32,000 bases of DNA from Candidatus Saccharimonadota bacterium. Its GTDB lineage: Archaea; Nanobdellota; Nanobdellia; Pacearchaeales; GW2011-AR1. Location of the stretch: the NCBI GenBank assembly GCA_041659445.1, contig JBAZYG010000001.1:330001-362000 (forward strand). The letters run 5' to 3'. The position numbers were made by a program, and so were the translations under genes. Every line of letters begins with the position of its first letter. Position 1 is the first letter of the stretch. Shown in pieces: positions 7,013-22,740 of this stretch. The notes below the pieces were generated by a model. That model saw nothing but the letters and a program-made list of their open reading frames with translations, was not told the origin of the DNA and ran no database searches.

Positions 7013-8224
7013 ATGACAAAAATATCAGACAAATTAATCAAAGCATATGCACTGAAAAATGCAATTCATTATTCAGGAAAAGCAAATTCAGGTGCTGTTA
7101 TTTCTTCTCTATTTAATGAAGGTTTAAAAAAAGAAGAGATAAAATCAATCATGCCGAAAGTTTCAGAAATTGTCAAGGAAATTTCAAAATTAAGTTTAGA
7201 AAAACAAGAACAAGAATTTGAAAAATTAAAAGAACTTGTTTCTGAAAGAGAACACCGAGAAGGATTACCTGAATTACCGAATGTAAATTCAAAAAAAGGA
7301 GTTGTTATGAGATTTAGACCAGCACCTTCTGGACCTTTGCATGTCGGACATATTATTGCAGGAATGCCAAGTTCTTTATATGTAAAAAAATACGGCGGAA
7401 AACTTTATATTATAATCGACGATACTGACCCTGAAACAACTCTTCCAGAAGCTTACGAAAACATAAAAAAAGATTTTAATTGGATTTTTGGAAATGTTTC
7501 TGAATATATTTCTTCTTCTGATAGAATGAAAATTTATTATGATTATGCTGAAAAACTTATTAAAAAAGAAAAAGCATATGTCTGCACTTGCTCTTCTGAA
7601 AAATTTAAATTATACGCCGAGTCTAAAGAAGATTGTCCTTGCAGAAATAATGAATTAAAAGAAAATCAGTTTAGATGGAAAAAAATGCTTGATAAAAAAG
7701 GTTACAAAGAAGGCGACGCTGTTTTGAGAATGAAATCAAATATGCAATATCCAAATCCAGCAATGAGAGATTTTCCTTTAGCAAGAATTAATCTTAGCAA
7801 TCATGCACGACAAGGAAAAAAATATCGAGTTTGGCCTTTGATGAATTTAGTTGTTCCTGTTGACGACATGGAATTTGGAATGACGCATATTATAAGAGGA
7901 AAAGACCATGCAGATAATGCAAAAAGACAAGAATTTATTTTTAATGTTTTTGGAAAAACATATCCATGGGCTTTTTTCATGGGAAGAATTAAATTCTCGG
8001 ATTTAATCCTATCAAAAAGAAAAATAAAAGCTGCAATTGAAGCAGGAGAATATTCTGGATTCGACGATGAAAGACTTCCTACAATTTCTTCTTTAAAAAA
8101 AAGAGGTTACAAGCCAGAAGCTTTTGCAAAATTTGCAGAACAAAGAGGATTAACAGAAGTTGATAAAGTTATAAGTCAAAAAGATTTTTTCGAGATAATT
8201 GATAATTTCAATCGAGAAGCATAA
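7013..8224 (+). CDS. gltX: Glutamyl-tRNA synthetase-like protein: archaeal/eukaryal-type class I catalytic core with no anticodon-binding domain
   Basis: HIGH motif in RFRPAPSGPLHVGH and KMSKS-type motif LSKRK. GlxRS-type blocks IIIDDTDPE, NPAMRDFPLARI, KYRVWPLMNLVVPVDD and THIIRGKDH are present. The helical N-terminal extension is KAYALKNAIHYSGKANSGAVIS. The protein ends at 403 aa. Confidence 0.75.
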   Translation: MTKISDKLIKAYALKNAIHYSGKANSGAVISSLFNEGLKKEEIKSIMPKVSEIVKEISKLSLEKQEQEFEKLKELVSEREHREGLPELPNVNSKKGVVMRFRPAPSGPLHVGHIIAGMPSSLYVKKYGGKLYIIIDDTDPETTLPEAYENIKKDFNWIFGNVSEYISSSDRMKIYYDYAEKLIKKEKAYVCTCSSEKFKLYAESKEDCPCRNNELKENQFRWKKMLDKKGYKEGDAVLRMKSNMQYPNPAMRDFPLARINLSNHARQGKKYRVWPLMNLVVPVDDMEFGMTHIIRGKDHADNAKRQEFIFNVFGKTYPWAFFMGRIKFSDLILSKRKIKAAIEAGEYSGFDDERLPTISSLKKRGYKPEAFAKFAEQRGLTEVDKVISQKDFFEIIDNFNREA

Positions 8225-12251: not shown

Positions 12252-12689
12252 ATGAACTGTCCATTTTGCTCATATACAACATCTAGAGTAACAGATAAAA
12301 GAGAATCTCCTGGAGGGATAAGAAGGCGAAGAGAATGTCTAAAATGTAAAAAGAGATTCACAACTTACGAAAAAATTGAAAAATCAGATTTATATGTTAT
12401 AAAAAAAGATGGTAGAAGAGAAAAATTCGAAATAGAAAAAATACAAAGAGGTGTTGAAAAAGCTTTTGAAAAAAGACCAGTTTCAATTGAGAAAATTTCA
12501 AAGATGATAAACGAAATTGAAGAAGCAATAAGAAAAAGAGGGAAAAAAGAAATATCTAGTTCAATTATAGGTGATTTAGTATCTAAAAAAATAAAAAGGT
12601 TGGATAAAGTAGCATATGTGCGGTTTGCATCAGTTTACCGTGATTTCAAAGACATAAGTGATTTCAAAAAAGAAATAAAAGAATTATAA
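12252..12689 (+). CDS. nrdR: Transcriptional repressor NrdR (zinc ribbon plus ATP-cone)
   Basis: The N-terminal zinc ribbon is MNCPFCSYTTSRVTDKRE...RRRRECLKCKKRFTTYE. The ATP-cone-like remainder includes VIKKDGRREKF and AYVRFASVYRDF. Its stop overlaps the nrdJ ATG (TAATG). Confidence 0.9.
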   Translation: MNCPFCSYTTSRVTDKRESPGGIRRRRECLKCKKRFTTYEKIEKSDLYVIKKDGRREKFEIEKIQRGVEKAFEKRPVSIEKISKMINEIEEAIRKRGKKEISSSIIGDLVSKKIKRLDKVAYVRFASVYRDFKDISDFKKEIKEL

Positions 12690-15379
12690 TGACGAACACA
12701 CTAGAAAAAAAAGTTTATACTCGTGAAGAAGCTGTAAAAAATGCTTTAGAATATTTCAAAGGAGATCAATTGGCTGCTGATGTTTGGGCAAATAAATATG
12801 CCTTAAAAGATTCTCAGGCAAGAATATACGAATCAAACCCTAATGAAATGCACGTTAGACTTGCAAAAGAAATTGCAAAAATTGAAACAAAATATCCTAG
12901 TCCAAACTCTTTATCTGAAAAACAAATTTATGATTTATTAAAAGATTTCAAATATATAATACCAGGAGGAAGCAACATGTCTGGAATTGGAAATGATATG
13001 CAAATAGTTTCTTTATCAAATTGTTTTGTTATAGGATATAATGAAAATTCTTCTGATTCTTATGGAAGCATACTGATGGTTGATCAAGAGCAAGTTCAAT
13101 TAATGAAAAGAAGAGGAGGAGTAGGACATGATTTATCTTATATAAGACCAGAAGGATTACCTGTTAAAAATTCTGCACTAACTTCAACAGGAGTTATTCC
13201 TTTTATGATGAGATACTCTAATTCAACAAGAGAAGTTGCACAAGATGGAAGAAGAGGAGCTTTGATGTTAAGTTTACATATAAAACATCCAGAAGCAGAG
13301 AAATTTATTGATGCAAAATTAGAACAAGGAAAAATTACTGGAGCAAACATATCTGTTAAAATAGACGATGAATTTATGTATGCTGTTAAAAACGGAACAA
13401 AATATATTCAACAATTTCCAATTAACTCTGAGAATCCTATTGTTAAAAAAGAAATTGATGCTAAAGAATTATGGAATAAAATTATTCATAATGCATGGAA
13501 ATCTGCAGAACCAGGAATTTTATTTTGGGATACTATAAAAAGAGAGTCTATTCCAGATGTTTATGCTGATGAAGGTTTTAAAACAGTTTCAACAAACCCT
13601 TGTGGAGAAATCCCGCTATGCCCTTATGATTCCTGTAGATTGACTTCATTAAACTTATTTAGTTACATAGAAAATCCTTTCACAAAAGAAGCCACATTTA
13701 ACTATGAACTTTTTAAAGATCATGCAAAAAAAACTATGAGGATAATGGACGATATAATTGATTTGGAATTAGAAAAAATTGATAAAATTTTAGATAAAGT
13801 TGGTTCTGACCCAGAAGAGGAAGAAGTAAAAAGAATTGAAAAAAATTTATGGTTAAAAATAAAAAACAAAGCAATTCAAGGAAGAAGGGCAGGAATAGGA
13901 ATTACTGCAGAAGGAGATATGCTCGCAGCAATGGGATTAACTTATGGAACTCCTGAAGCGACAAAATTTTCAACAGAAATTCATAAAATGTTAGCATTAG
14001 AAATTTATAGAAGTTCAGTAGATTTGGCTGAAGAAAGAGGAGCTTTTCCAATTTATAATGCAGAAAAAGAAAAAGACAATCCTTTTATTAATAGAATTAA
14101 AGAAGCAGACCCTGAACTTTACAAGAGAATGGTTGAACATGGAAGAAGAAATATCTCTGCATTAACTATTGCTCCAAATGGTTCTGTAAGTATTGTTGCA
14201 CAAACAACTTCAGGAATTGAACCTGCATTTTTAATGGGTTATCAAAGAAAAGTAAAAGTTGAAAAAAATAATAAAGGATTTGAAATAGACTTTACCGACG
14301 AACAAGGAGATGATTGGCATGTTTATGGAAATGTATTTCACCCTAAATTTAAGGAGTGGATGAAAAAAAATTTATCTATTGAAGAAATTGAAAAAATCAA
14401 TAACATAAAAGATGAAAATGAATTTAAAGATATAATATATGAATTGCAAAAAAAATCACCATATAGTCATGCAACTTCTGAAGATGTAGATTGGGTTGAG
14501 AAAGTCAACATGCAAGGAACAATTCAGAAATGGGTTGATCACTCAATAAGTGCTACAACAAACATGCCAGAAAATGTTTCAGAGAATATTGTTGCACAAG
14601 CATACATGAAAGCTTGGGAATCAGGATGTAAAGGACATACTATTTATAGAGAAGGTTCAAGAGAGGGTATTTTAAGTTCTAAGAAAGATAAAAATTTAGA
14701 AGAAAAAGTTACTCTTGTTCAAAAGAATGTAAAACCACATCCATTATTAGATATAAAACCTCAATCAATAAAGTATAAGGTAAAAAGACAAACAGATAGA
14801 CTTCACATGATTCCGACTAGTGATTTGTATGTTGATGATAAAAATAAACTTGCTTATTTTTTACCTGATGAAAGTTTTACAAATAGATTACCTCCAGGAA
14901 CTCCAACAAGTGCAAGCTTTACAACTGAAGGTATACTTTTATCACAAGCATTTAGGGGAGCAGATCCAGATTATGTAGGATTAATCGAAATTTTACAATC
15001 TATTTCTTCAGATGAAAGTGAGGGAATTGGCCCAAGAAAAATAAAATCAATAGAACATGGAATGGGAATTGTATTAGAACATTATTTATTAACAAATGGA
15101 GTAATAGAAAGAGATTCTCTATCAAATAAATTAACTCAAGTTGTAAGAAAAAAAGATTTAAGAAAAGTTGAACCAGGAACAGAAGAATATTCTTCTATCC
15201 TATCTCAAGTAAGAGTTGGAGATAATGAACAAGCAGTTATTGTTAGTGGAAATAACGGAAAATTAGACAAAAAATTTATATGTAATCTTTGTGGATGTGA
15301 AAAACCTACTTTTAAAGATGGATGTAATTCTCCTGTATGTTCTAAATGTGGAAATGATAATGGTGTTGGTTGCGGTTAG
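12689..15379 (+). CDS. nrdJ: Class II (adenosylcobalamin-dependent) ribonucleotide reductase
   Basis: Active-site block TNPCGEIPL, plus GGVGHDLSYIRPEG, GILFWDT, TIAPNGS and TIYREGSREGIL. The Cys-rich C-terminal tail is CNLCGCEKPTFKDGCNSPVCSKCGNDNGVGCG. Confidence 0.9.
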   Translation: MTNTLEKKVYTREEAVKNALEYFKGDQLAADVWANKYALKDSQARIYESNPNEMHVRLAKEIAKIETKYPSPNSLSEKQIYDLLKDFKYIIPGGSNMSGIGNDMQIVSLSNCFVIGYNENSSDSYGSILMVDQEQVQLMKRRGGVGHDLSYIRPEGLPVKNSALTSTGVIPFMMRYSNSTREVAQDGRRGALMLSLHIKHPEAEKFIDAKLEQGKITGANISVKIDDEFMYAVKNGTKYIQQFPINSENPIVKKEIDAKELWNKIIHNAWKSAEPGILFWDTIKRESIPDVYADEGFKTVSTNPCGEIPLCPYDSCRLTSLNLFSYIENPFTKEATFNYELFKDHAKKTMRIMDDIIDLELEKIDKILDKVGSDPEEEEVKRIEKNLWLKIKNKAIQGRRAGIGITAEGDMLAAMGLTYGTPEATKFSTEIHKMLALEIYRSSVDLAEERGAFPIYNAEKEKDNPFINRIKEADPELYKRMVEHGRRNISALTIAPNGSVSIVAQTTSGIEPAFLMGYQRKVKVEKNNKGFEIDFTDEQGDDWHVYGNVFHPKFKEWMKKNLSIEEIEKINNIKDENEFKDIIYELQKKSPYSHATSEDVDWVEKVNMQGTIQKWVDHSISATTNMPENVSENIVAQAYMKAWESGCKGHTIYREGSREGILSSKKDKNLEEKVTLVQKNVKPHPLLDIKPQSIKYKVKRQTDRLHMIPTSDLYVDDKNKLAYFLPDESFTNRLPPGTPTSASFTTEGILLSQAFRGADPDYVGLIEILQSISSDESEGIGPRKIKSIEHGMGIVLEHYLLTNGVIERDSLSNKLTQVVRKKDLRKVEPGTEEYSSILSQVRVGDNEQAVIVSGNNGKLDKKFICNLCGCEKPTFKDGCNSPVCSKCGNDNGVGCG

Positions 15380-15452
15380 ATATATTTTTATCAAAATTTA
15401 ATTTATAAAAGAGAACAACAATTCTTAAAAAGGAATGAATTAATTTGAATTT

Positions 15453-16574
15453 ATGAGAAGAGGAGTTCTTCCTGATTGGAAAATAAGAGAATTCATAAAA
15501 GAAGGAATTATTTGCAATGCAGATGTAAATCTTGTTAATCCGAGTAGTCTTGATTTAAGAATAGGGTTTGATAAATGGAAACTTGTTGGAAGTTTTCTTC
15601 CTCTTCGAGAACAAAACATAAAAAAAATATTAAGTTCCAGAGAAATTGTAGACGATCATTCTTCAAAAGAACAATTTTATGTCGAATACCTTCAATCTTA
15701 TGTAATGCAACTTGTAGAAAGTCTTAATTTACCGAATACAATCAGTGCAAAAATGTTCAATAAATCTGGAAGAGGGAGAATTGGAATATCTGCTAAAGGA
15801 TTAACTGATGGCTGTTCTCAATTTGATTACATAAAAAATGGATATCAAGGAGATTTATATTCTGAAATTACTGCTACAAGTTTTCCATTAGTAATTCATT
15901 CAGGCATAACTCCTATTCCCCAAATAAGATTTTATGAAGGAAATCCTGAACCAATAGCTGGGTCAGATTTAGAATTATTATTAAGAAAACACCCTATATT
16001 AACAGACGATAATGGAAACCAGTCTTACGATGAAATTGAAAAAGAAGAAATGATTAGAACAGGAAAACTAACTTTTACAGCAGACATTCCAAAAAGAGGT
16101 TTGCTTGCATATATTGCAAAAAGAGACAGAAGAACAATTGATTTATCTAAAAAAGGAAATTATGTGCCTAAAGAATATTATGATGAAATAAAAAACAAAA
16201 ACAATTCAGGATTAATTATAATTCATCCAGGAGATTTTGTTTTAGTTAATTCTAAACAAAACATAAGGCTTCCTCCAACAGTTGCAGCAGAAATCGACGA
16301 ATATTCTCCTGAATTAGGAGACATGAAATCTCATTATGCAGGTTTGATAAATGCTTCTCATGGATATGATCCAAAAAATCCAAATGTTCCGTCACATATA
16401 GTTTTTGAAATTAGAGCAAGAGATGTTCCAATAATACTTCAAGACAACCAATCATTGGCAAAATTTAATTTGTATAATATGTTATATGAACCAGAAGAAA
16501 GATATATGGATAAAAAAAGCACTGGATTTAAGGATTTAAAATCCATCTTGCCAAATGTGTTCAACAAAAAGTAA
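15453..16574 (+). CDS. dcd: Long-form dCTP deaminase with tandem dUTPase-fold domains
   Basis: The N-terminus LPDWKIREFIKEG...NPSSLDLRIG is Dcd-like. There are two Dcd-type core blocks: GRGRIGIS...GYQGDLYSEITA and SHYAGLINASHGYDP...HIVFEIRA. The acidic residue of the xxE motif is kept in both. CTTAAAAA lies 29 nt upstream of the ATG. Confidence 0.7.
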   Translation: MRRGVLPDWKIREFIKEGIICNADVNLVNPSSLDLRIGFDKWKLVGSFLPLREQNIKKILSSREIVDDHSSKEQFYVEYLQSYVMQLVESLNLPNTISAKMFNKSGRGRIGISAKGLTDGCSQFDYIKNGYQGDLYSEITATSFPLVIHSGITPIPQIRFYEGNPEPIAGSDLELLLRKHPILTDDNGNQSYDEIEKEEMIRTGKLTFTADIPKRGLLAYIAKRDRRTIDLSKKGNYVPKEYYDEIKNKNNSGLIIIHPGDFVLVNSKQNIRLPPTVAAEIDEYSPELGDMKSHYAGLINASHGYDPKNPNVPSHIVFEIRARDVPIILQDNQSLAKFNLYNMLYEPEERYMDKKSTGFKDLKSILPNVFNKK

Positions 16575-16645
16575 TTCTCGACAACAATAATATTTAAAAA
16601 AGAATTTAACCCTTATGAAATATTAAAACAATAAAAGAGAGAAAA

Positions 16646-17227
16646 ATGATATTATCAGCACTTAAAGTTTTAGAATTAAATAAAAAATACAATTTAATTG
16701 AAAATTTATCAGAAAGAGAATTAGAAAATCCAGAAGGAACCATTTTAGATTTAAGAATTGGACAAATTCATAAAATAATTGGAGAAAGTTTTTTAGGGAT
16801 TCAAGAAAGATATTCTTCAAAAATTGAAACAATTGGAGATGTAAATAAAGACGGAAACAAAAAATTCACAATAAAACCTGGTGAATTTTTTCTTGTTACA
16901 ACAATAGAAATAATTTCTTCTCCTGCTGAAAAAATAAAATATGATGCTTCTTTTCCAGAAGGATACATTATTCCAAAAATTTTTCCAAGAACTTCTTTAC
17001 AAAGAGGAGGATTAAGTTTGCATTGCAGTAATACTAATCCAGGATATAAAGGACAATTAACATTTGGAATAAAAAATCAAGGCGATCAAGATTTTGTATT
17101 TGAATTAGGAGCAAGAATGTTTAGCATTGAATATGTTGCAGTTGTTGGAGAAATTAAAAGAATTTATTCTGGACAACATCAAGGTGGAAGAGTTACAAGC
17201 GACGGAAAAAAAGAGGTTCAAAATTAA
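16646..17227 (+). CDS. dCTP deaminase/dUTPase-family paralogue with a degenerate active site
   Basis: Family blocks LDLRIGQ, PRTSLQRGGLSLH and NPGYKGQLTFGIKNQG, with C-terminal YSGQHQGGRVTS. At the canonical ID-PG...LE positions this protein reads TN-PG...FG. Confidence 0.7.
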   Translation: MILSALKVLELNKKYNLIENLSERELENPEGTILDLRIGQIHKIIGESFLGIQERYSSKIETIGDVNKDGNKKFTIKPGEFFLVTTIEIISSPAEKIKYDASFPEGYIIPKIFPRTSLQRGGLSLHCSNTNPGYKGQLTFGIKNQGDQDFVFELGARMFSIEYVAVVGEIKRIYSGQHQGGRVTSDGKKEVQN

Positions 17228-17671
17228 ATGAAAAATTATAATTTAATTCCGCAAGAAAAAAACAATTATTGTCTTTGCTCTGTTATTCAAGCAATTTTTG
17301 ATAAACATGGAAAAAAAATTTCCCAAGATCAAATTGCTCCTCAATTAAATTCTGGAGAAAATGGTTTTTATTTTGATGATTTTAAATTTAAAAATTTTTT
17401 AAATGCTTATGGATTTGTATATAGTTTATTTAAATATGATACAACACCTTTTAATGAACCTGATTTTTTATTGAGTGAAAATTTTGAAAAAGATATTTTT
17501 ATTGCTTGGAATAAGCATGTTGTTTTATTAAATGATTTTAAAGATCCATATATAGAATACATTAATCCAGATAAAGGAATAGTCCAAAAAAAAGAATTAA
17601 GTTCATTATTGTTTGAAATGAGCCAAAATAAATCTGGTTTTTTTGGAGTTATATCAAAAGGTATAATCTAG
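17228..17671 (+). CDS. Stand-alone papain-fold (peptidase C39-like) domain protein
   Basis: PQEKNNYCLCSVIQAIFDKHGKKISQDQIA has Gln about 6 residues before the Cys. NKHVVLLNDFKDPYIEYINPDKG matches the C39-like Q/C/H/D layout. Its ATG directly abuts the preceding stop (TAAATG). Confidence 0.45.
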   Translation: MKNYNLIPQEKNNYCLCSVIQAIFDKHGKKISQDQIAPQLNSGENGFYFDDFKFKNFLNAYGFVYSLFKYDTTPFNEPDFLLSENFEKDIFIAWNKHVVLLNDFKDPYIEYINPDKGIVQKKELSSLLFEMSQNKSGFFGVISKGII

Positions 17672-17710
17672 TATAATTATATTTATAAAACAAAACAATC
17701 TAAAAAGAAA

Positions 17711-18838
17711 ATGGTTCAACAATTTTTAGAACATTCAAAAAAGATTCTTACATCAGAACGTTCTAATTTTAAATGGGGAAGTAAAGGTTCTGGGCTTATT
17801 TCTTTATTTGGATACCAAAATGAATATGATTTAAGAGAAGGATATCCTTTAGCAACAACTAAAAAAATGTTTACAAAATCCATGATTCATGAAACTCTTT
17901 GGTTTATAAGAGGAAATACCAATATAAAATATTTAGAGGATAATGGTTGCAAAATTTGGAGAGGTAATGCTTTTGAATACAATCTACCTGCGATGGTTAA
18001 AGAAAGTATTTTTCCTAGAAACCTATTAGAAAAGAGTGTAAAATATTCTTCTGATTGGGATAAATCAATGTTAGAATATGCTCAAAAAATAAAAGAAAGT
18101 TCTGAATTTGCAGAAAGATTTGGAGATGCTGGTCCTATTTATCCTGCTCAATGGAGACATTGGAAACATTTTGATGAAAAACAAGGTAAAATTGTAGAAA
18201 TAGATCAATTAAGAAATATGATTGAAGGACTAAAGAAAAAACCTACTGGAAAAAAACACATTGTAACTGCATGGAATCCGGGAGATGTTCCGAATATGTC
18301 TTTACCACCTTGTCATGTTCTTTTTCAAGCAACTATTAATGAAGAAAACGAATTAGAATTAAACCTTTATCAAAGAAGTTCAGATATGTTTTTAGGTGTT
18401 CAGTTTAATTATGCTAGTTATTCCTTAATTACACAATTAATTGCACAAGAAGTTGGTGCTATACCAAAAACATTTATTCATAGTTTTGGAGATACCCATT
18501 TTTATACAGGATTAGAAAATAAAAGTAATTGGTATAAAGAACATTTTCATGAGTTTAGAGAAAGGGTTAGAAAAGTTAAAAGTAGAGAAGGATATTTAGA
18601 GATTCTTGACTGGGTAAATAAAAATGCACCAAGAGATGCTAATCAAACCGAAGAAAATTATGAACCTTCAAAAGATTATGATCATATTACTGCAATACTT
18701 GAACAATTATCAAGAGAACCAAGACCATTACCTAAGCTAATAATTGCAAAAAAACCATTTGATAAGTTAAACATTGATGATTTTATTATTGAAGATTATA
18801 ACCCATATCCAAAAATTGAAAGAGCGATGGCTATTTAA
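17711..18838 (+). CDS. thyA: Thymidylate synthase ThyA, long form with two insertions
   Basis: HETLWFIRGNTN, GPIYPAQWRHW, the catalytic Cys in LPPCHVLFQ, YQRSSDMFLGVQFNYASYSL, QLSREPRPLPKL and C-terminal ...AMAI. TTTATAAA lies 29 nt upstream of the ATG. Confidence 0.9.
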   Translation: MVQQFLEHSKKILTSERSNFKWGSKGSGLISLFGYQNEYDLREGYPLATTKKMFTKSMIHETLWFIRGNTNIKYLEDNGCKIWRGNAFEYNLPAMVKESIFPRNLLEKSVKYSSDWDKSMLEYAQKIKESSEFAERFGDAGPIYPAQWRHWKHFDEKQGKIVEIDQLRNMIEGLKKKPTGKKHIVTAWNPGDVPNMSLPPCHVLFQATINEENELELNLYQRSSDMFLGVQFNYASYSLITQLIAQEVGAIPKTFIHSFGDTHFYTGLENKSNWYKEHFHEFRERVRKVKSREGYLEILDWVNKNAPRDANQTEENYEPSKDYDHITAILEQLSREPRPLPKLIIAKKPFDKLNIDDFIIEDYNPYPKIERAMAI

Positions 18839-18839
18839 A

Positions 18840-19325
18840 ATGAATTTAAAAATAATTGTTGCAATATCTGAAAATAATGTCATTGGAATAAATAATAAGA
18901 TTCCTTGGAGAATTCCAGAAGATATGAAAAGATTTAAAGAATTAACAACAGGACATCCAGTAATTATGGGAAGTAAAACTTATTTATCAATTCCTGAAAA
19001 ATTTAGACCATTACCTGACAGAAAAAATATTATACTTTCTAAAAAATTAGAACCCCAGAACGGAATTTACATTGCAAAAAATATAGAAGAAGCATTAAGT
19101 TTTACTGAAAATGAAGATTCATTTGTTATTGGTGGTAGCCAGATTTATGAAGAATTTTTGCCTAGAGCAAATTTTTTAGAAATAACAAAAGTTCACGAAA
19201 CTTTTGATGGAGATTCTTTTTTTCCAGAAATAAATTGGAATGATTGGAAAAAAATTTATGAAAAAAGGCAAAAATCTGAAAAAGGTCTTGAATTTTCTTT
19301 CCAAACATTTAAAAGAAATCTTTAA
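18840..19325 (+). CDS. folA: Dihydrofolate reductase
   Basis: MNLKIIVAISENNVIGINNKIPWRIPEDMKRFKELTTGHPVIMGSKTY plus VIGGSQIYEEFLP. I start at ATG 18840 (a TAAAATG junction with thyA). The ORF-track ATG at 18774 lies inside thyA. Confidence 0.85.
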   Translation: MNLKIIVAISENNVIGINNKIPWRIPEDMKRFKELTTGHPVIMGSKTYLSIPEKFRPLPDRKNIILSKKLEPQNGIYIAKNIEEALSFTENEDSFVIGGSQIYEEFLPRANFLEITKVHETFDGDSFFPEINWNDWKKIYEKRQKSEKGLEFSFQTFKRNL

Positions 19326-19349: not shown

Positions 19350-19679
19350 ATGATAACAAATGAATTAGTTCCAGAATTAGCAAATAAAGAATTTGAAAAA
19401 TTTGTAAAACAAGGCATTGTATTAGTTGATTTTTTTGCAGAATGGTGTATGCCCTGTGTTATGATGGGCCCGGTTATTGAAGATTTAGCTGAAGAATTTT
19501 CTGGAAAAATTAAAGTCGGAAAAATAAATGTTGACGATAATTCTGAACTAGCTTCTAAATTTAATATCTCTTCTATTCCTAATCTTATTTTATTTAAAGA
19601 TGGAAAAATTGTCGAACAATTAATTGGAGCTAGAACTCACGAAGAAATTGCAGAAGTTATAAAAATTTATATTAATTGA
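19350..19679 (+). CDS. trxA: Thioredoxin with a CMPC active site
   Basis: VLVDFFAEWCMPCVMMGPVIEDLAEE, with SIPNLILFKDGK (cis-Pro region). The length is typical of a thioredoxin at 109 aa. Confidence 0.85.
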   Translation: MITNELVPELANKEFEKFVKQGIVLVDFFAEWCMPCVMMGPVIEDLAEEFSGKIKVGKINVDDNSELASKFNISSIPNLILFKDGKIVEQLIGARTHEEIAEVIKIYIN

Positions 19680-21002: not shown

Positions 21003-21773
21003 ATGAAAAAACTAATAGTTTATGATGGCTCTTCAATAGAACCAAATCCAATAAAAAATTTTTTAGATAGGAATGATCTGATTGGAATTCAAAGAAAATA
21101 CTTTATTAATTTATATCCTTTCATGAACTTAAAAAATAAAACCCCTTATTTTATTACAGATTTTAATTTCAAACACCACCAAGATGTTAAAAACATTGAA
21201 ATTGCGAGAAAGATTAAAAAAATAGATAAAAAAAATTTATCATTAATAATATTTGACTCTCATACTGATATGTATCAAGAAGGTGAAGGATATTACCATT
21301 TTGAAAAAAAAGTAACTATGGCTAATTGGATTGCATATATGGTTTCTAGAGAATATTCAAATATTTCATTAATAGGTGTAACAGACTTTACACATTCTTC
21401 TAGACAAAGAAAAGGATTTGAGTATGGTAATTTAAAAAATAAAGTTTCATTTTTTTTAGGTGAAAATTACAAGCAAGAAAAAGATTTTAAAGAATATAAT
21501 GGAGAAATTAAATTAAATAATATTAAAGATTTTTTTGACGCTTCTTTGATGGAAAATAGTTTCATAAGTTTTGATTCAGACGTGAGTTCAGATTTTACAA
21601 ATACAAATTCTAAATTTGCTGGGAGACTAGGAAATTTGGGTTTAGAAGATTGTAAAAAAATAATAAATTATATTAAAGAAAATTCAAATTTAATTGGATT
21701 TTCTTTTTTTGCAACAGGTTTTGCAGAAGCCTTTAACGAAAAAGATCATAATTTAAATTCATTAATAAACTGA
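21003..21773 (+). CDS. Divergent ureohydrolase (arginase/agmatinase)-superfamily-like protein (tentative)
   Basis: IIFDSHTDMY resembles the D-A-H-x-D metal motif, and ISFDSDVSSDF resembles S-x-D-x-D. No clear GGDHS motif is present; only KHHQD lies upstream. Confidence 0.35.
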   Translation: MKKLIVYDGSSIEPNPIKNFLDRNDLIGIQRKYFINLYPFMNLKNKTPYFITDFNFKHHQDVKNIEIARKIKKIDKKNLSLIIFDSHTDMYQEGEGYYHFEKKVTMANWIAYMVSREYSNISLIGVTDFTHSSRQRKGFEYGNLKNKVSFFLGENYKQEKDFKEYNGEIKLNNIKDFFDASLMENSFISFDSDVSSDFTNTNSKFAGRLGNLGLEDCKKIINYIKENSNLIGFSFFATGFAEAFNEKDHNLNSLIN

Positions 21774-21793
21774 AATCTTTAATCCAAAGGTTT

Positions 21794-21801
21794 TTTAAAT
21801 A
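21794..21801 (+). promoter_or_regulatory. TATA box (TTTAAATA) 29 nt upstream of the first partial tRNA-Lys 5' copy
   Basis: It has the same -29 spacing as the protein-gene promoters in this window. No comparable TATA lies at this distance from the intact tRNA at 22017. Confidence 0.45.
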
Positions 21802-21820
21802 TAAATTAATTTAGTCAAAC

Positions 21821-21836
21821 ATGGCTCCGTAGCTCA
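21821..21836 (+). repeat. Partial copy 1 of the tRNA-Lys 5' end (tRNA nt 1-14 plus 2 upstream nt)
   Basis: ATGGCTCCGTAGCTCA is identical to 21945..21960 and 22015..22030. Confidence 0.85.
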
Positions 21837-21933
21837 CGTAAGGAAACGAGGTTTCCTTAACGTTCAACTTTCCTTCGGCACAGAACAGCAATTTCAAAAT
21901 TGCCTCCGAGGAAATTGCAAAAAAGCTACGAGC
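21823..21933 (+). other. Hairpin-rich ~110-nt element closed by pairing of the partial tRNA 5' end with a downstream complement
   Basis: GGCTCCGTAGCT (21823-21834) pairs with AGCTACGAGC (21924-21933) with one bulge. An internal hairpin is CGTAAGGAAAC-GAG-GTTTCCTTAACG (21837-21862). Stem TTTCCTTCGG / CCGAGGAAA (21869-78 / 21906-14) encloses GCAATTTCAAAATTGC (21888-21903). A second AAATTGC at 21912-18 allows alternative pairing. Confidence 0.4.
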
Positions 21934-21940
21934 AAAAAAT

Positions 21941-21969
21941 AAATATGGCTCCGTAGCTCAGCCTGGTCA
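21941..21969 (+). repeat. Partial copy 2 of the tRNA-Lys 5' end (tRNA nt 1-23 plus 6 upstream nt)
   Basis: AAATATGGCTCCGTAGCTCAGCCTGGTCA is identical to 22011..22039. It is followed by an imperfect hairpin GGTCA-AAACTGAAATAAATTTCGTTT-AGAG-TGACC. Confidence 0.85.
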
Positions 21970-22016
21970 AACTGAAATAAATTTCGTTTAGAGTGACCAA
22001 TCAGAACTACAAATAT

Positions 22017-22091
22017 GGCTCCGTAGCTCAGCCTGGTCAGAGCACTGGACTTTTAATCCAGGTGTCGGGGGTTCAAATCCCTCCGGGGCCA
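22017..22091 (+). tRNA. tRNA-Lys (anticodon UUU), 75 nt, no encoded CCA
   Basis: Manual cloverleaf. Acceptor GGCTCCG/CGGGGCC with one G-U pair. D arm GCTC-AGCCTGGTCA-GAGC. Anticodon arm CTGGA-CTTTTAA-TCCAG. Variable loop GTGTC. T arm GGGGG-TTCAAAT-CCCTC. Discriminator A. A T5 run follows. Confidence 0.9.
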
Positions 22092-22158
22092 TTTTTACAT
22101 TTTAATATATATTCTATAATACAGTAATAAATTTAAAGCGTGAACAAATAAAAATATC

Positions 22159-22740
22159 ATGGAAGAAAATAATTTAGAAATAACTGCTAAAGCGGGAGAT
22201 GCTTCTTCTGGGAAAATAATTATTAGTAGAAATGGGGAAATTAAAGAATACCCTACTGTTGTTTTTTCTGAAAAGCAATCAGAAATATTATTTGAAACTT
22301 TAAAAAAAATTTCGAATAAAAATTACAAAAGTTCCAATTTAAAAATAAGCCTCTATACAAAAGAAGACCATAATCATAAAAAAATTTCTTATAGAAGAGA
22401 AGAAATAGATTTTATCTTTGATTACACAAATTTTGAAAAACAAAAAAGAAAAGAAATAAGCCATAGAATCTGGAATCATCTTTCAGATTATTTAATTAAT
22501 ATAGAACATGTTCATCCAAAATCAGAAAATGCATTGTTTTCTAAAGAATATACTTCATTAAATAAAGAAATAACTGTGAAAAGAAAATTATTCAAACCAA
22601 TTTTAAACTTAATAGTAATTAGAGATACTCATTATTTTCCTAAAGATAAAAATGGAAAAGAATTGGATGGAGTAGAAATTTCAAAACCGTTAAACGTCGA
22701 ATTACTGGATGAATTCTTAAGATGTGGAAGAACCTATTAA
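22159..22740 (+). CDS. Hypothetical protein (193 aa)
   Basis: ORF with TTTAAAGC 27 nt upstream of the ATG. No motif recognised. It is the first gene downstream of tRNA-Lys. Confidence 0.5.
   Translation: MEENNLEITAKAGDASSGKIIISRNGEIKEYPTVVFSEKQSEILFETLKKISNKNYKSSNLKISLYTKEDHNHKKISYRREEIDFIFDYTNFEKQKRKEISHRIWNHLSDYLINIEHVHPKSENALFSKEYTSLNKEITVKRKLFKPILNLIVIRDTHYFPKDKNGKELDGVEISKPLNVELLDEFLRCGRTY

Follow-up and report, generated by a model that had tools for sequence, protein, structure and literature searches.

In a 32,000-nt window of archaeal DNA (positions 330,001 to 362,000, forward strand, of contig JBAZYG010000001.1 in GenBank assembly GCA_041659445.1, deposited as Candidatus Saccharimonadota bacterium and assigned by GTDB to the Pacearchaeales of the Nanobdellota), a tRNA-Lys(UUU) gene is preceded by two partial copies of its own 5' end, and each copy is followed by a spacer that closes with a sequence antisense to it. 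When partial copies of a tRNA lie next to its gene, they are commonly dismissed as scars of integration or as pseudogenes. At the loci described here, such copies form a conserved RNA structure with covarying pairs, which lies in the leaders of particular tRNAs in many uncultivated DPANN archaea, and the window locus belongs to an undescribed and widespread DPANN family of such tRNA-derived leader hairpins. The structure of these units is well supported, and their function is only partly understood.

The tRNA-Lys(UUU) is the only tRNA detected in the 32 kb by either ARAGORN (called as tRNA-Lys(ttt), 22016-22092) or Rfam (22017-22091, 71.2 bits), and it lies where a first-pass annotation of the sequence had placed it. 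The two upstream copies described in that annotation were recovered by a repeat finder and by direct check. The longer is a 29-nt exact repeat (21941-21969 = 22011-22039) consisting of six upstream nucleotides plus tRNA nt 1-21, and its identity ends on both sides (T/C before, A/G after). The shorter, the 16-nt sequence ATGGCTCCGTAGCTCA, consists of two upstream nucleotides plus tRNA nt 1-14 and occurs at 21821 (copy 1, 21821-21836), 21945, and 22015. Gaps of 104 nt and then 41 nt separate the copies, placing copy 2 at 70 nt 5' of the intact tRNA-Lys (Table 1). The repeats extend upstream of +1 by 2-6 nt in the window and by as much as about 12 nt in relatives, indicating that the modules arose by partial duplication at the DNA level.

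The anatomy of the leader had likewise been read correctly as about 194 nt with a single promoter and self-complementary spacers. The sole canonical promoter stands before the first partial copy, and no further exact TTTAAATA was found between the 21794 box and the tRNA. T5 runs are absent from 21802-22091, and, judging from the promoter position, transcription would start at about 21821-23. Element 1 (21823-21933) adopts a three-way fold closed by pairing between AGCTACGAGC and copy 1 (-36.8 kcal/mol; z = -4.8 versus shuffles), a closure that had already been recognized, as had the folding of the spacer behind copy 2. The latter proceeds through TGGTCA (21964-21969) and TGACCA (21994-21999), giving a unit that spans 21947-22010 (z = -2.7), in which the CTCAG/CTGAG helix typical of the family is degraded (CAGAAC). 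A modular fold comprising element 1, unit 2, and the cloverleaf has an energy of -81.7 kcal/mol, at most 1.5 above the global minimum, and it is also the fold of lowest energy for the nascent leader, at the stage when the tRNA has yet to be synthesized. The earlier reading was nonetheless incomplete, as it overlooked both the antisense copy at the end of each spacer and the existence of a family of more than 100 loci.

Table 1. Layout of the tRNA-Lys(UUU) transcription unit, in window coordinates.
Feature	Position	Strand	Remarks
TATA box TTTAAATA	21794-21801	+	29 nt before G1 of copy 1 (21823); sole promoter before the unit
Copy 1, tRNA nt 1-14 (GGCTCCGTAGCTCA)	21823-21836	+	5' strand of the closing stem of leader element 1
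Element 1 insert	21837-21923	+	Hairpin 1, 21837-21862; hairpin 2, 21869-21914, with inner hairpin 21888-21903 (RNAfold)
Antisense 1 (AGCTACGAGC)	21924-21933	+	Pairs with copy 1 nt 2-12
A-rich linker 1	21934-21946	+	Final 6 nt, AAATAT, belong to the 29-nt repeat
Copy 2, tRNA nt 1-21 (23 bases)	21947-21969	+	5' strand of leader hairpin 2
Unit 2 tip hairpin	21970-21993	+	CTGAA/TTTAG or AAAC..GTTT
Antisense 2 (TGACCAATCAGAACTAC)	21994-22010	+	TGACCA with TGGTCA (21964-69); CTAC with GTAG (21953-56)
Linker 2 (AAATAT)	22011-22016	+	Abuts the mature 5' end
Intact tRNA-Lys(UUU)	22017-22091	+	Contiguous 75 nt; CCA not encoded
Oligo-T run TTTTT	22092-22096	+	Likely archaeal terminator

Similar leaders are widespread. 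When GTDB genomes were scanned with an exact pattern that requires two D-arm starts spaced 40-70 nt, 90 loci were returned, about 75 of them in metagenome-assembled genomes (MAGs) named Woesearchaeota, Pacearchaeota, or Nanoarchaeota, and a metagenome scan anchored on the antisense segment plus tRNA added 56 further loci. In archaeal loci, the two scans amount to about 75 and about 40, respectively. In the archaeal loci, a 23-base copy precedes tRNA-Lys (UUU or CUU), tRNA-Ile, or tRNA-Arg(UCU), and in nearly all of about 70 of them it stops after A21. The family is defined by a copy of nt 1-21 and, 55-90 nt downstream of it, an intact tRNA carrying the D-arm GTAGCTCAGYCTGG, and the window shows this arrangement too. 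Both scan patterns demand the GTAGCTCAGYCTGG D-arm, so the restriction to the Lys/Ile/Arg(UCU) group is to be read from in-locus controls only, namely from the roughly 14 other tRNAs in these loci (Gly, Glu, Cys, Met, Leu, and Arg-CCU), which have no copy. Arrays occur as well, with five units in locus L026 and two each in L013, L025, and L095, and the spacers are identical or nearly identical within an array (L026, L013, L095). A second architecture, related to the type of window element 1, combines a copy reaching about nt 12-14 with insert hairpins and with a palindrome that resembles the D-arm (GCTCGGCCTGGTC-G-ACCAGTCTGAGC). Type-1 elements are defined by a copy to about A14, structured inserts, and antisense to nt 3-12, all of which the window element possesses, and their copies frequently read GTAGCTTG in place of GTAGCTCA. 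A full-text literature search found no description of these hairpins; it turned up integration fragments and leaderless genes of Nanoarchaeum equitans.

A covariance model built on the class-A units gave window unit 2 as its sole significant match in the 32 kb (28.6 bits, E = 4.6e-5), a score to be read beside the 25-33 bits that intact tRNAs also reach and the different tip class of the window unit. As a test of membership, the model was dropped because it does not separate divergent units from intact tRNAs.

The evidence that the spacers are partners of the copies comes from their pairing. In 71 of 71 distinct units, the tRNA-derived strand pairs with the 3' part of the spacer, with G19 and G20 paired in every case; the mean z relative to spacer shuffles is -3.8, and 93% of units fall below -2. 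Across the family, spacers range from 30 to 110 nt and are always antisense to the copy, and that of window unit 2 ends in an antisense that pairs with the D-loop (TGGNN/NNCCA) and with further copy nucleotides around a tip. Among 33 class-A units, 90% of cells are paired versus at most 46% with slid partners, and 40 double-change cells were counted versus 9.1 in shuffles (0/500). All four pairs of the tip stem covary. D-loop variants track their partners as TGGTT/AACCA, TGGCT/AGCCA, TGGAT/ATCCA, and TGGTC/GACCA. Likewise, the complement of the acceptor strand differs by isotype (GGCTC/GAGTT, GAGGCT/AGCTTC, GAGCCT/AGGTTC), a decoy GCGCC is opposed by GGCG in L041, and close relatives keep the pairing with different complements (GAGTT versus GAAGCT, both facing GGCTCC).

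The pairs also reveal which strand folds. G·U accounts for 17% of pairs at G positions versus 6% for C·A at C positions, U·G was seen 19 times versus once for A·C, and wobble-compatible sense combinations are 3- to 9-fold commoner than their antisense equivalents. This excess of G·U over C·A shows that it is the sense strand that folds. In the family, GC content is 44% for the leaders and 25% for the flanks, 57 of 78 flanks but only 4 of 78 leaders contain a T5 run, and a promoter is present only before the first copy, the TATA box of relatives lying likewise 29-38 nt before it. Taken as a whole, the covariation, the wobble asymmetry, the GC-rich and T-run-poor leaders, and the single TATA box support an RNA hairpin within one sense transcript.

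These same observations bear on the proposal that the repeats are DNA remnants of site-specific recombination within the 5' portion of the tRNA gene, either attL/attR sites or a miniature non-autonomous element, with no RNA role. Such an origin would account for direct repeats (29 nt and 16 nt) that include nucleotides upstream of +1, and hence for duplication in DNA, as well as for the patchy presence of the units and their confinement to tRNAs with one common D-arm sequence; it also has precedents in Caldiarchaeum subterraneum (PMC3293823) and the Thermococcaceae (PMC9897764). However, in about 75 loci the surrounding 3 kb contain neither an integrase nor a transposase, and no recombinase family recurs. 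The unit pattern had 0 matches in IMG/VR and the leader matched no phage or plasmid, in collections that hold few DPANN elements. Scars would also not be expected to leave spacers of 30-110 nt that are always antisense to the copy, acceptor complements specific to each locus, covariation, or an asymmetry of G·U over C·A, and we therefore regard this explanation as improbable. Of the four explanations offered in the first-pass annotation, only a tRNA-derived regulatory or processing leader is upheld, by the conserved architecture and the covarying pairs. The att-like scars that it listed find no support, given the absence of an integrase or mobile gene nearby and of any match in viral or plasmid collections, and given spacers that are short (40-100 nt) and structured, whereas a small insertion with long target duplication fits the DNA layout but not its conservation.

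The remaining suggestion, split or alternative tRNA 5' halves, is likewise unsupported. In a related reading, the partial copies are exons: the tRNA would start at copy 1, at the transcription start and without RNase P as in N. equitans, and non-canonical introns would follow nt 14 and nt 21. In its favor, the organisms fall within the GTDB Nanoarchaeota, the promoter is almost as close to copy 1 as in a leaderless gene, positions 14 and 21 are conserved as break points, and AGCT (nt 9-12) is self-complementary and could give a 4-bp central helix. A purpose-written scanner for the bulge-helix-bulge motif (4-bp helix, two 3-nt bulges, flanks of at least 2 bp), however, found none with equivalent cut positions in the window and none recurrent in 70 loci, so that no canonical motif capable of removing a unit was seen. 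Moreover, the downstream gene is contiguous and intact everywhere, and type-1 copies often carry GTAGCTTG rather than GTAGCTCA. Finally, upstream copies in L018, L041, L083, L087, and L098 have mutated acceptors that would break a tRNA, and mutated decoy acceptors (AGCTCCG, TGCTTCG, and CGGCTGG) mark the downstream gene as the functional one. Exons are thus a very improbable identity for the copies.

Comparison with close relatives shows both conservation and absence. The 256-aa protein encoded upstream of the locus has only four homologues. In L008 (54% protein identity), the same two-element leader precedes a tRNA-Lys(CUU): a copy to A14 and a hairpin with compensatory changes are followed by a copy to A21 and its hairpin, and then by the gene. 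A Woesearchaeota MAG, L067, has the layout of the window and L008. Hairpin 1 and a TCCTT/AGGAA stem are common to the three, with compensatory changes, and counterparts of antisense 1 read TTCGCTACGGA in L067 and TTCGCTAC in L008 and L019. Window element 1 (21823-21933) is homologous to the L008 and L067 elements over its first ~45 nt, the part covered by the automatic alignment of the three genomes, and a three-way fold is found in all three. In L155 (60%), L006 (55%), and L156 (49%), by contrast, units are absent and the promoter lies directly before tRNA-Lys. The units are therefore dispensable, even though the leader is inherited. A small inverted repeat, TTGGTAATAACCAA, was seen directly before tRNA-Lys in L155 (955-978), the nearest of the relatives that lack units, resembling the D-loop TGGT plus antisense ACCA, and this sequence may be the relic of a lost unit. 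A search for homologues of the 193-aa protein encoded downstream, made with the aim of sampling more relatives, found none.

The first-pass annotation had also raised the concern that the repeats might reflect an assembly artefact. Such an artefact could come from collapsed repeats or from a chimeric join. For the strain of the window, short-read Logan contigs do break at 21858, in the leader, and at 22053, in the tRNA, and N-gaps interrupt unit arrays in the MAG scaffolds L058, L084, and L094. Nevertheless, the ENA assembly ERZ27249449 is identical base for base over 21774-22160, a range that includes the full locus, and the same architecture recurs in more than 100 independent assemblies; Logan contigs from two further runs (SRR6484324, SRR18595301) reach copy 1 and the first 22 nt of its spacer. 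An artefact is therefore almost certainly not the source of the repeats. The N-gaps and contig breaks do, however, make unit copy numbers taken from assemblies unreliable.

Several other identities were considered and set aside. A C/D box small RNA is not indicated, as 21823-22016 contains no TGATGA and the CTGA of the family is the complement of TCAG in the tRNA copy; a K-turn was rejected for want of tandem G·A. Hammerhead and other ribozymes and riboswitches had no Rfam match even at lax thresholds. In Rfam 15, only the tRNA was matched. With E allowed up to 10, nothing credible appeared in 21700-22016, and with E up to 0.1 no match was obtained for leaders from six relatives. The idea of a DNA operator, a palindrome bound by a dimeric repressor, was discarded, since a tip that varies from 12 to 35 nt between half-sites, together with the excess of G·U over C·A, speaks against duplex DNA being recognized. 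A CRISPR-like array or ectopic spacer integration was rejected on the grounds that the spacers run antisense to the repeat and, within one array, are identical to each other, and no Cas family was found among the Pfam-scanned proteins (20 window open reading frames and 10 neighbor-cluster representatives). A dispersed repeat or miniature inverted-repeat transposable element was rejected since the spacers have no further copy in the window or in 150 loci. Finally, a conserved partner gene was sought nearby and rejected: across about 75 loci the neighbors are housekeeping genes, and the linkage of thioredoxin to tRNA-Lys, which recurs in 21 related loci, is housekeeping synteny.

What the leader does can be approached through its predicted folding. 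In the interpretation put forward here, to which we give an even chance of being right, the leader modules lock into their own hairpins so that the decoy 5' ends cannot compete with the real one, and they are then cut off. Positions 21794-22096 would form one transcription unit, with a single promoter and a precursor of about 270 nt ending at the T-run, and the 194-nt leader would comprise two tRNA-derived modules, each starting with a copy of the tRNA 5' end (nt 1-14 in one, nt 1-21 in the other) and ending with an imperfect antisense of it. With copy and antisense in the same module, the partial 5' end would become the 5' strand of a local stem closing a variable insert. As the modules would be made first, they could fold on themselves ahead of the real tRNA and keep the decoys off its 3' acceptor and D-stem strands, so that the intact tRNA could fold alone, and a cut of the RNase P type at 22016/22017 would release it. 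From this arrangement we infer co-transcription, 5' processing, and insulation as the property under selection. At L025 (7077-7243, in a Woesearchaeota MAG), a tRNA-Cys begins 21 nt after tRNA-Arg(UCU), with no room for a promoter, and this polycistronic pair lies behind two leader units; the lack of a separate promoter for the tRNA-Cys implies that 5' ends are processed endonucleolytically in at least one genome that carries units.

The competition between decoy and tRNA was measured as the probability of a correct acceptor stem in a partition-function test on 65 loci. Removal of the leader gives 0.98, a shuffled spacer, which leaves the decoy free, gives 0.03, and the native leader gives 0.20; native exceeds shuffled in 54 of the 65 loci (p = 4e-9). 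The antisense segment thus neutralizes a decoy that would otherwise compete for the 3' strands of the tRNA, and sequential folding would, in this model, complete the insulating effect.

A number of points weigh against insulation. At equilibrium, the native probability of a correct stem is only 0.20, and in the window it is 0.017, so the argument needs co-transcriptional folding. Transcription and 5' ends are here deduced from the DNA sequence. No RNase P was identified in this genome, whose relative N. equitans does without the enzyme and is, to our knowledge, alone in doing so; the unit-bearing organisms are relatives of N. equitans. Insulation accounts for the covariation but not for the existence or origin of the decoys, and it leaves unexplained the conservation of the tip, roughly equal to that of the tRNA (87% versus 61% for promoter flanks, in a pre-selected set), the sharing of a tip class among the tRNA genes of one genome, and arrays of up to five units. 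Finally, the truncated-tRNA leader units of bacteria, described below, have an unpaired acceptor strand.

Since the origin of the decoys, the conservation of the tip, and the sharing of tip classes are not covered by insulation, a small-RNA or switch function is kept as its main rival, although we judge it somewhat unlikely. The modules would then be functional RNAs, either hairpin small RNAs that are released, with a tip that is perhaps protein-bound, or a maturation switch: pairing of the antisense with the decoy would leave the tRNA free and turn processing on, and pairing with the true 5' half would turn it off. Lineages that share 61% identity in their promoter flanks share 87% in the tip plus antisense region, a comparison made on a class-A set that was pre-selected by class similarity, and covariation extends to all four tip-stem pairs. 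Moreover, one tip class occurs at the Lys, Ile, and Arg genes of the same genome and differs between genomes, and arrays of 2-5 units suggest a dosage effect. A switch, in particular, would suit an antisense that pairs equally well with the downstream true 5' half, and would suit the equilibrium probability of only 0.2; designed leaders that sequester the cleavage region have been shown to control RNase P (PMC8925977). Against such functions stand the patchy distribution, with L155, L156, and L006 having the promoter directly before tRNA-Lys, and the lack of an Rfam match, of a conserved partner gene nearby, and of C/D or K-turn signatures (judged in part by eye). More broadly, the units could represent a new class of tRNA-linked regulatory RNA, acting as an antisense toggle that gates 5' maturation or as a tip-recognized hairpin RNA derived from the tRNA 5' end. 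Such a toggle would act on the tRNAs that read the A-rich codons in heaviest use in these reduced archaea (Lys, Ile, and Arg-AGA), and this wider proposal, in either form, is doubtful.

Some further observations concern the tRNA genes and the surroundings of the locus. Many unit-bearing tRNA-Lys and tRNA-Ile genes (in L026, L042, L062, L083, L095, and others) have long introns at the canonical 37/38 site, up to about 100 nt, and ARAGORN misassigns the isotype of intron-bearing tRNAs, for example as "Ser aga" or "Stop tta". The window itself is from an archaeon with 27% GC and encodes a TrmB regulator, an RNA polymerase subunit B that is not split, and a nucleotide-metabolism cluster; the leader and its tRNA have as neighbors the genes of an arginase-like protein and, downstream, of an unknown protein of 193 aa. 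At 12689-19325 lies a compact deoxynucleotide-synthesis cluster comprising ribonucleotide reductase (896 aa), a two-domain dCTP deaminase (373 aa), a long thymidylate synthase (375 aa), and dihydrofolate reductase, followed by thioredoxin at 19350-19679. The open reading frame at 7013-8224, encoding a Glu/Gln-tRNA synthetase catalytic domain, is only 403 aa in length and may be truncated or split.

The units have practical as well as biological significance. They supply a rule by which annotators can distinguish them from true tRNA genes and from tRNA fragments, and they carry a warning that arrays are collapsed or gapped in MAGs. They also offer a natural test case of a precursor that copes with decoy 5' ends. 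If an antisense/decoy switch or stable small RNAs were confirmed, the units would add a new layer of control over tRNA supply in organisms with single-copy tRNA genes.

Among known systems, the closest in DNA layout are tRNA fragments left by integration. In C. subterraneum, a 5' fragment of tRNA-Thr lies 1.8 kb upstream of its gene, beside a recombinase (PMC3293823), and the tRNA fragments of Thermococcaceae derive from integrated elements (PMC9897764). Like these, the leader units are partial copies of a tRNA 5' end, present upstream as direct repeats and produced by DNA duplication. In integration fragments, however, kilobases and a recombinase separate the copies, whereas here the intervening sequence is 41-110 nt, RNA-like, antisense, and covarying, with no mobile gene. 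The split, tri-split, and multi-intron tRNAs of Nanoarchaeota and Thermoproteales share with the units their host group, tRNA 5' pieces that precede a pairing sequence, and break points in the D-arm, but the units have no bulge-helix-bulge, their complementarity is to the piece itself rather than to a partner leader, and a complete tRNA gene is present.

At the level of expression, the tRNA genes of N. equitans are leaderless and have TTTAAA at -27 (PMC3491384). The window locus likewise has a TATA box at a fixed, short distance from a tRNA-type 5' end, so that transcription would begin at this end or a few nucleotides from it, but this start belongs to a decoy, and the real tRNA, 194 nt downstream, would need an endonucleolytic cut. 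In designed RNase P riboswitch leaders, alternative pairing hides or exposes a region that RNase P needs (Ender et al. 2022, PMC8925977). A 5' leader with alternative pairing at the RNase P region is common to both cases, although the designed leaders are synthetic and ligand-controlled, whereas here the partners would be the decoy and the true 5' half, and the switching is hypothetical.

Finally, the scan also returned bacterial loci in which one to three truncated tRNA-like units, with a period of 69-82 nt, stand before an intact gene, so that these are more than simple tandem tRNA genes. They were seen in MAGs of Bacteroidota, Pirellulales, and Bdellovibrionales, at tRNA-Pro (L015, L056, L045, L072, L076, L052, L059, L097, L061) and at tRNA-Ile in the rRNA spacer (L027, L054, L077). 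Each bacterial unit has the acceptor 5' strand, a full D-arm, and a GC hairpin that replaces the anticodon arm, with no 3' acceptor strand. Like the archaeal units, they are tandem partial tRNA copies in the leader of an intact gene; unlike them, their acceptor strand is without an antisense partner and the whole D-arm is kept.

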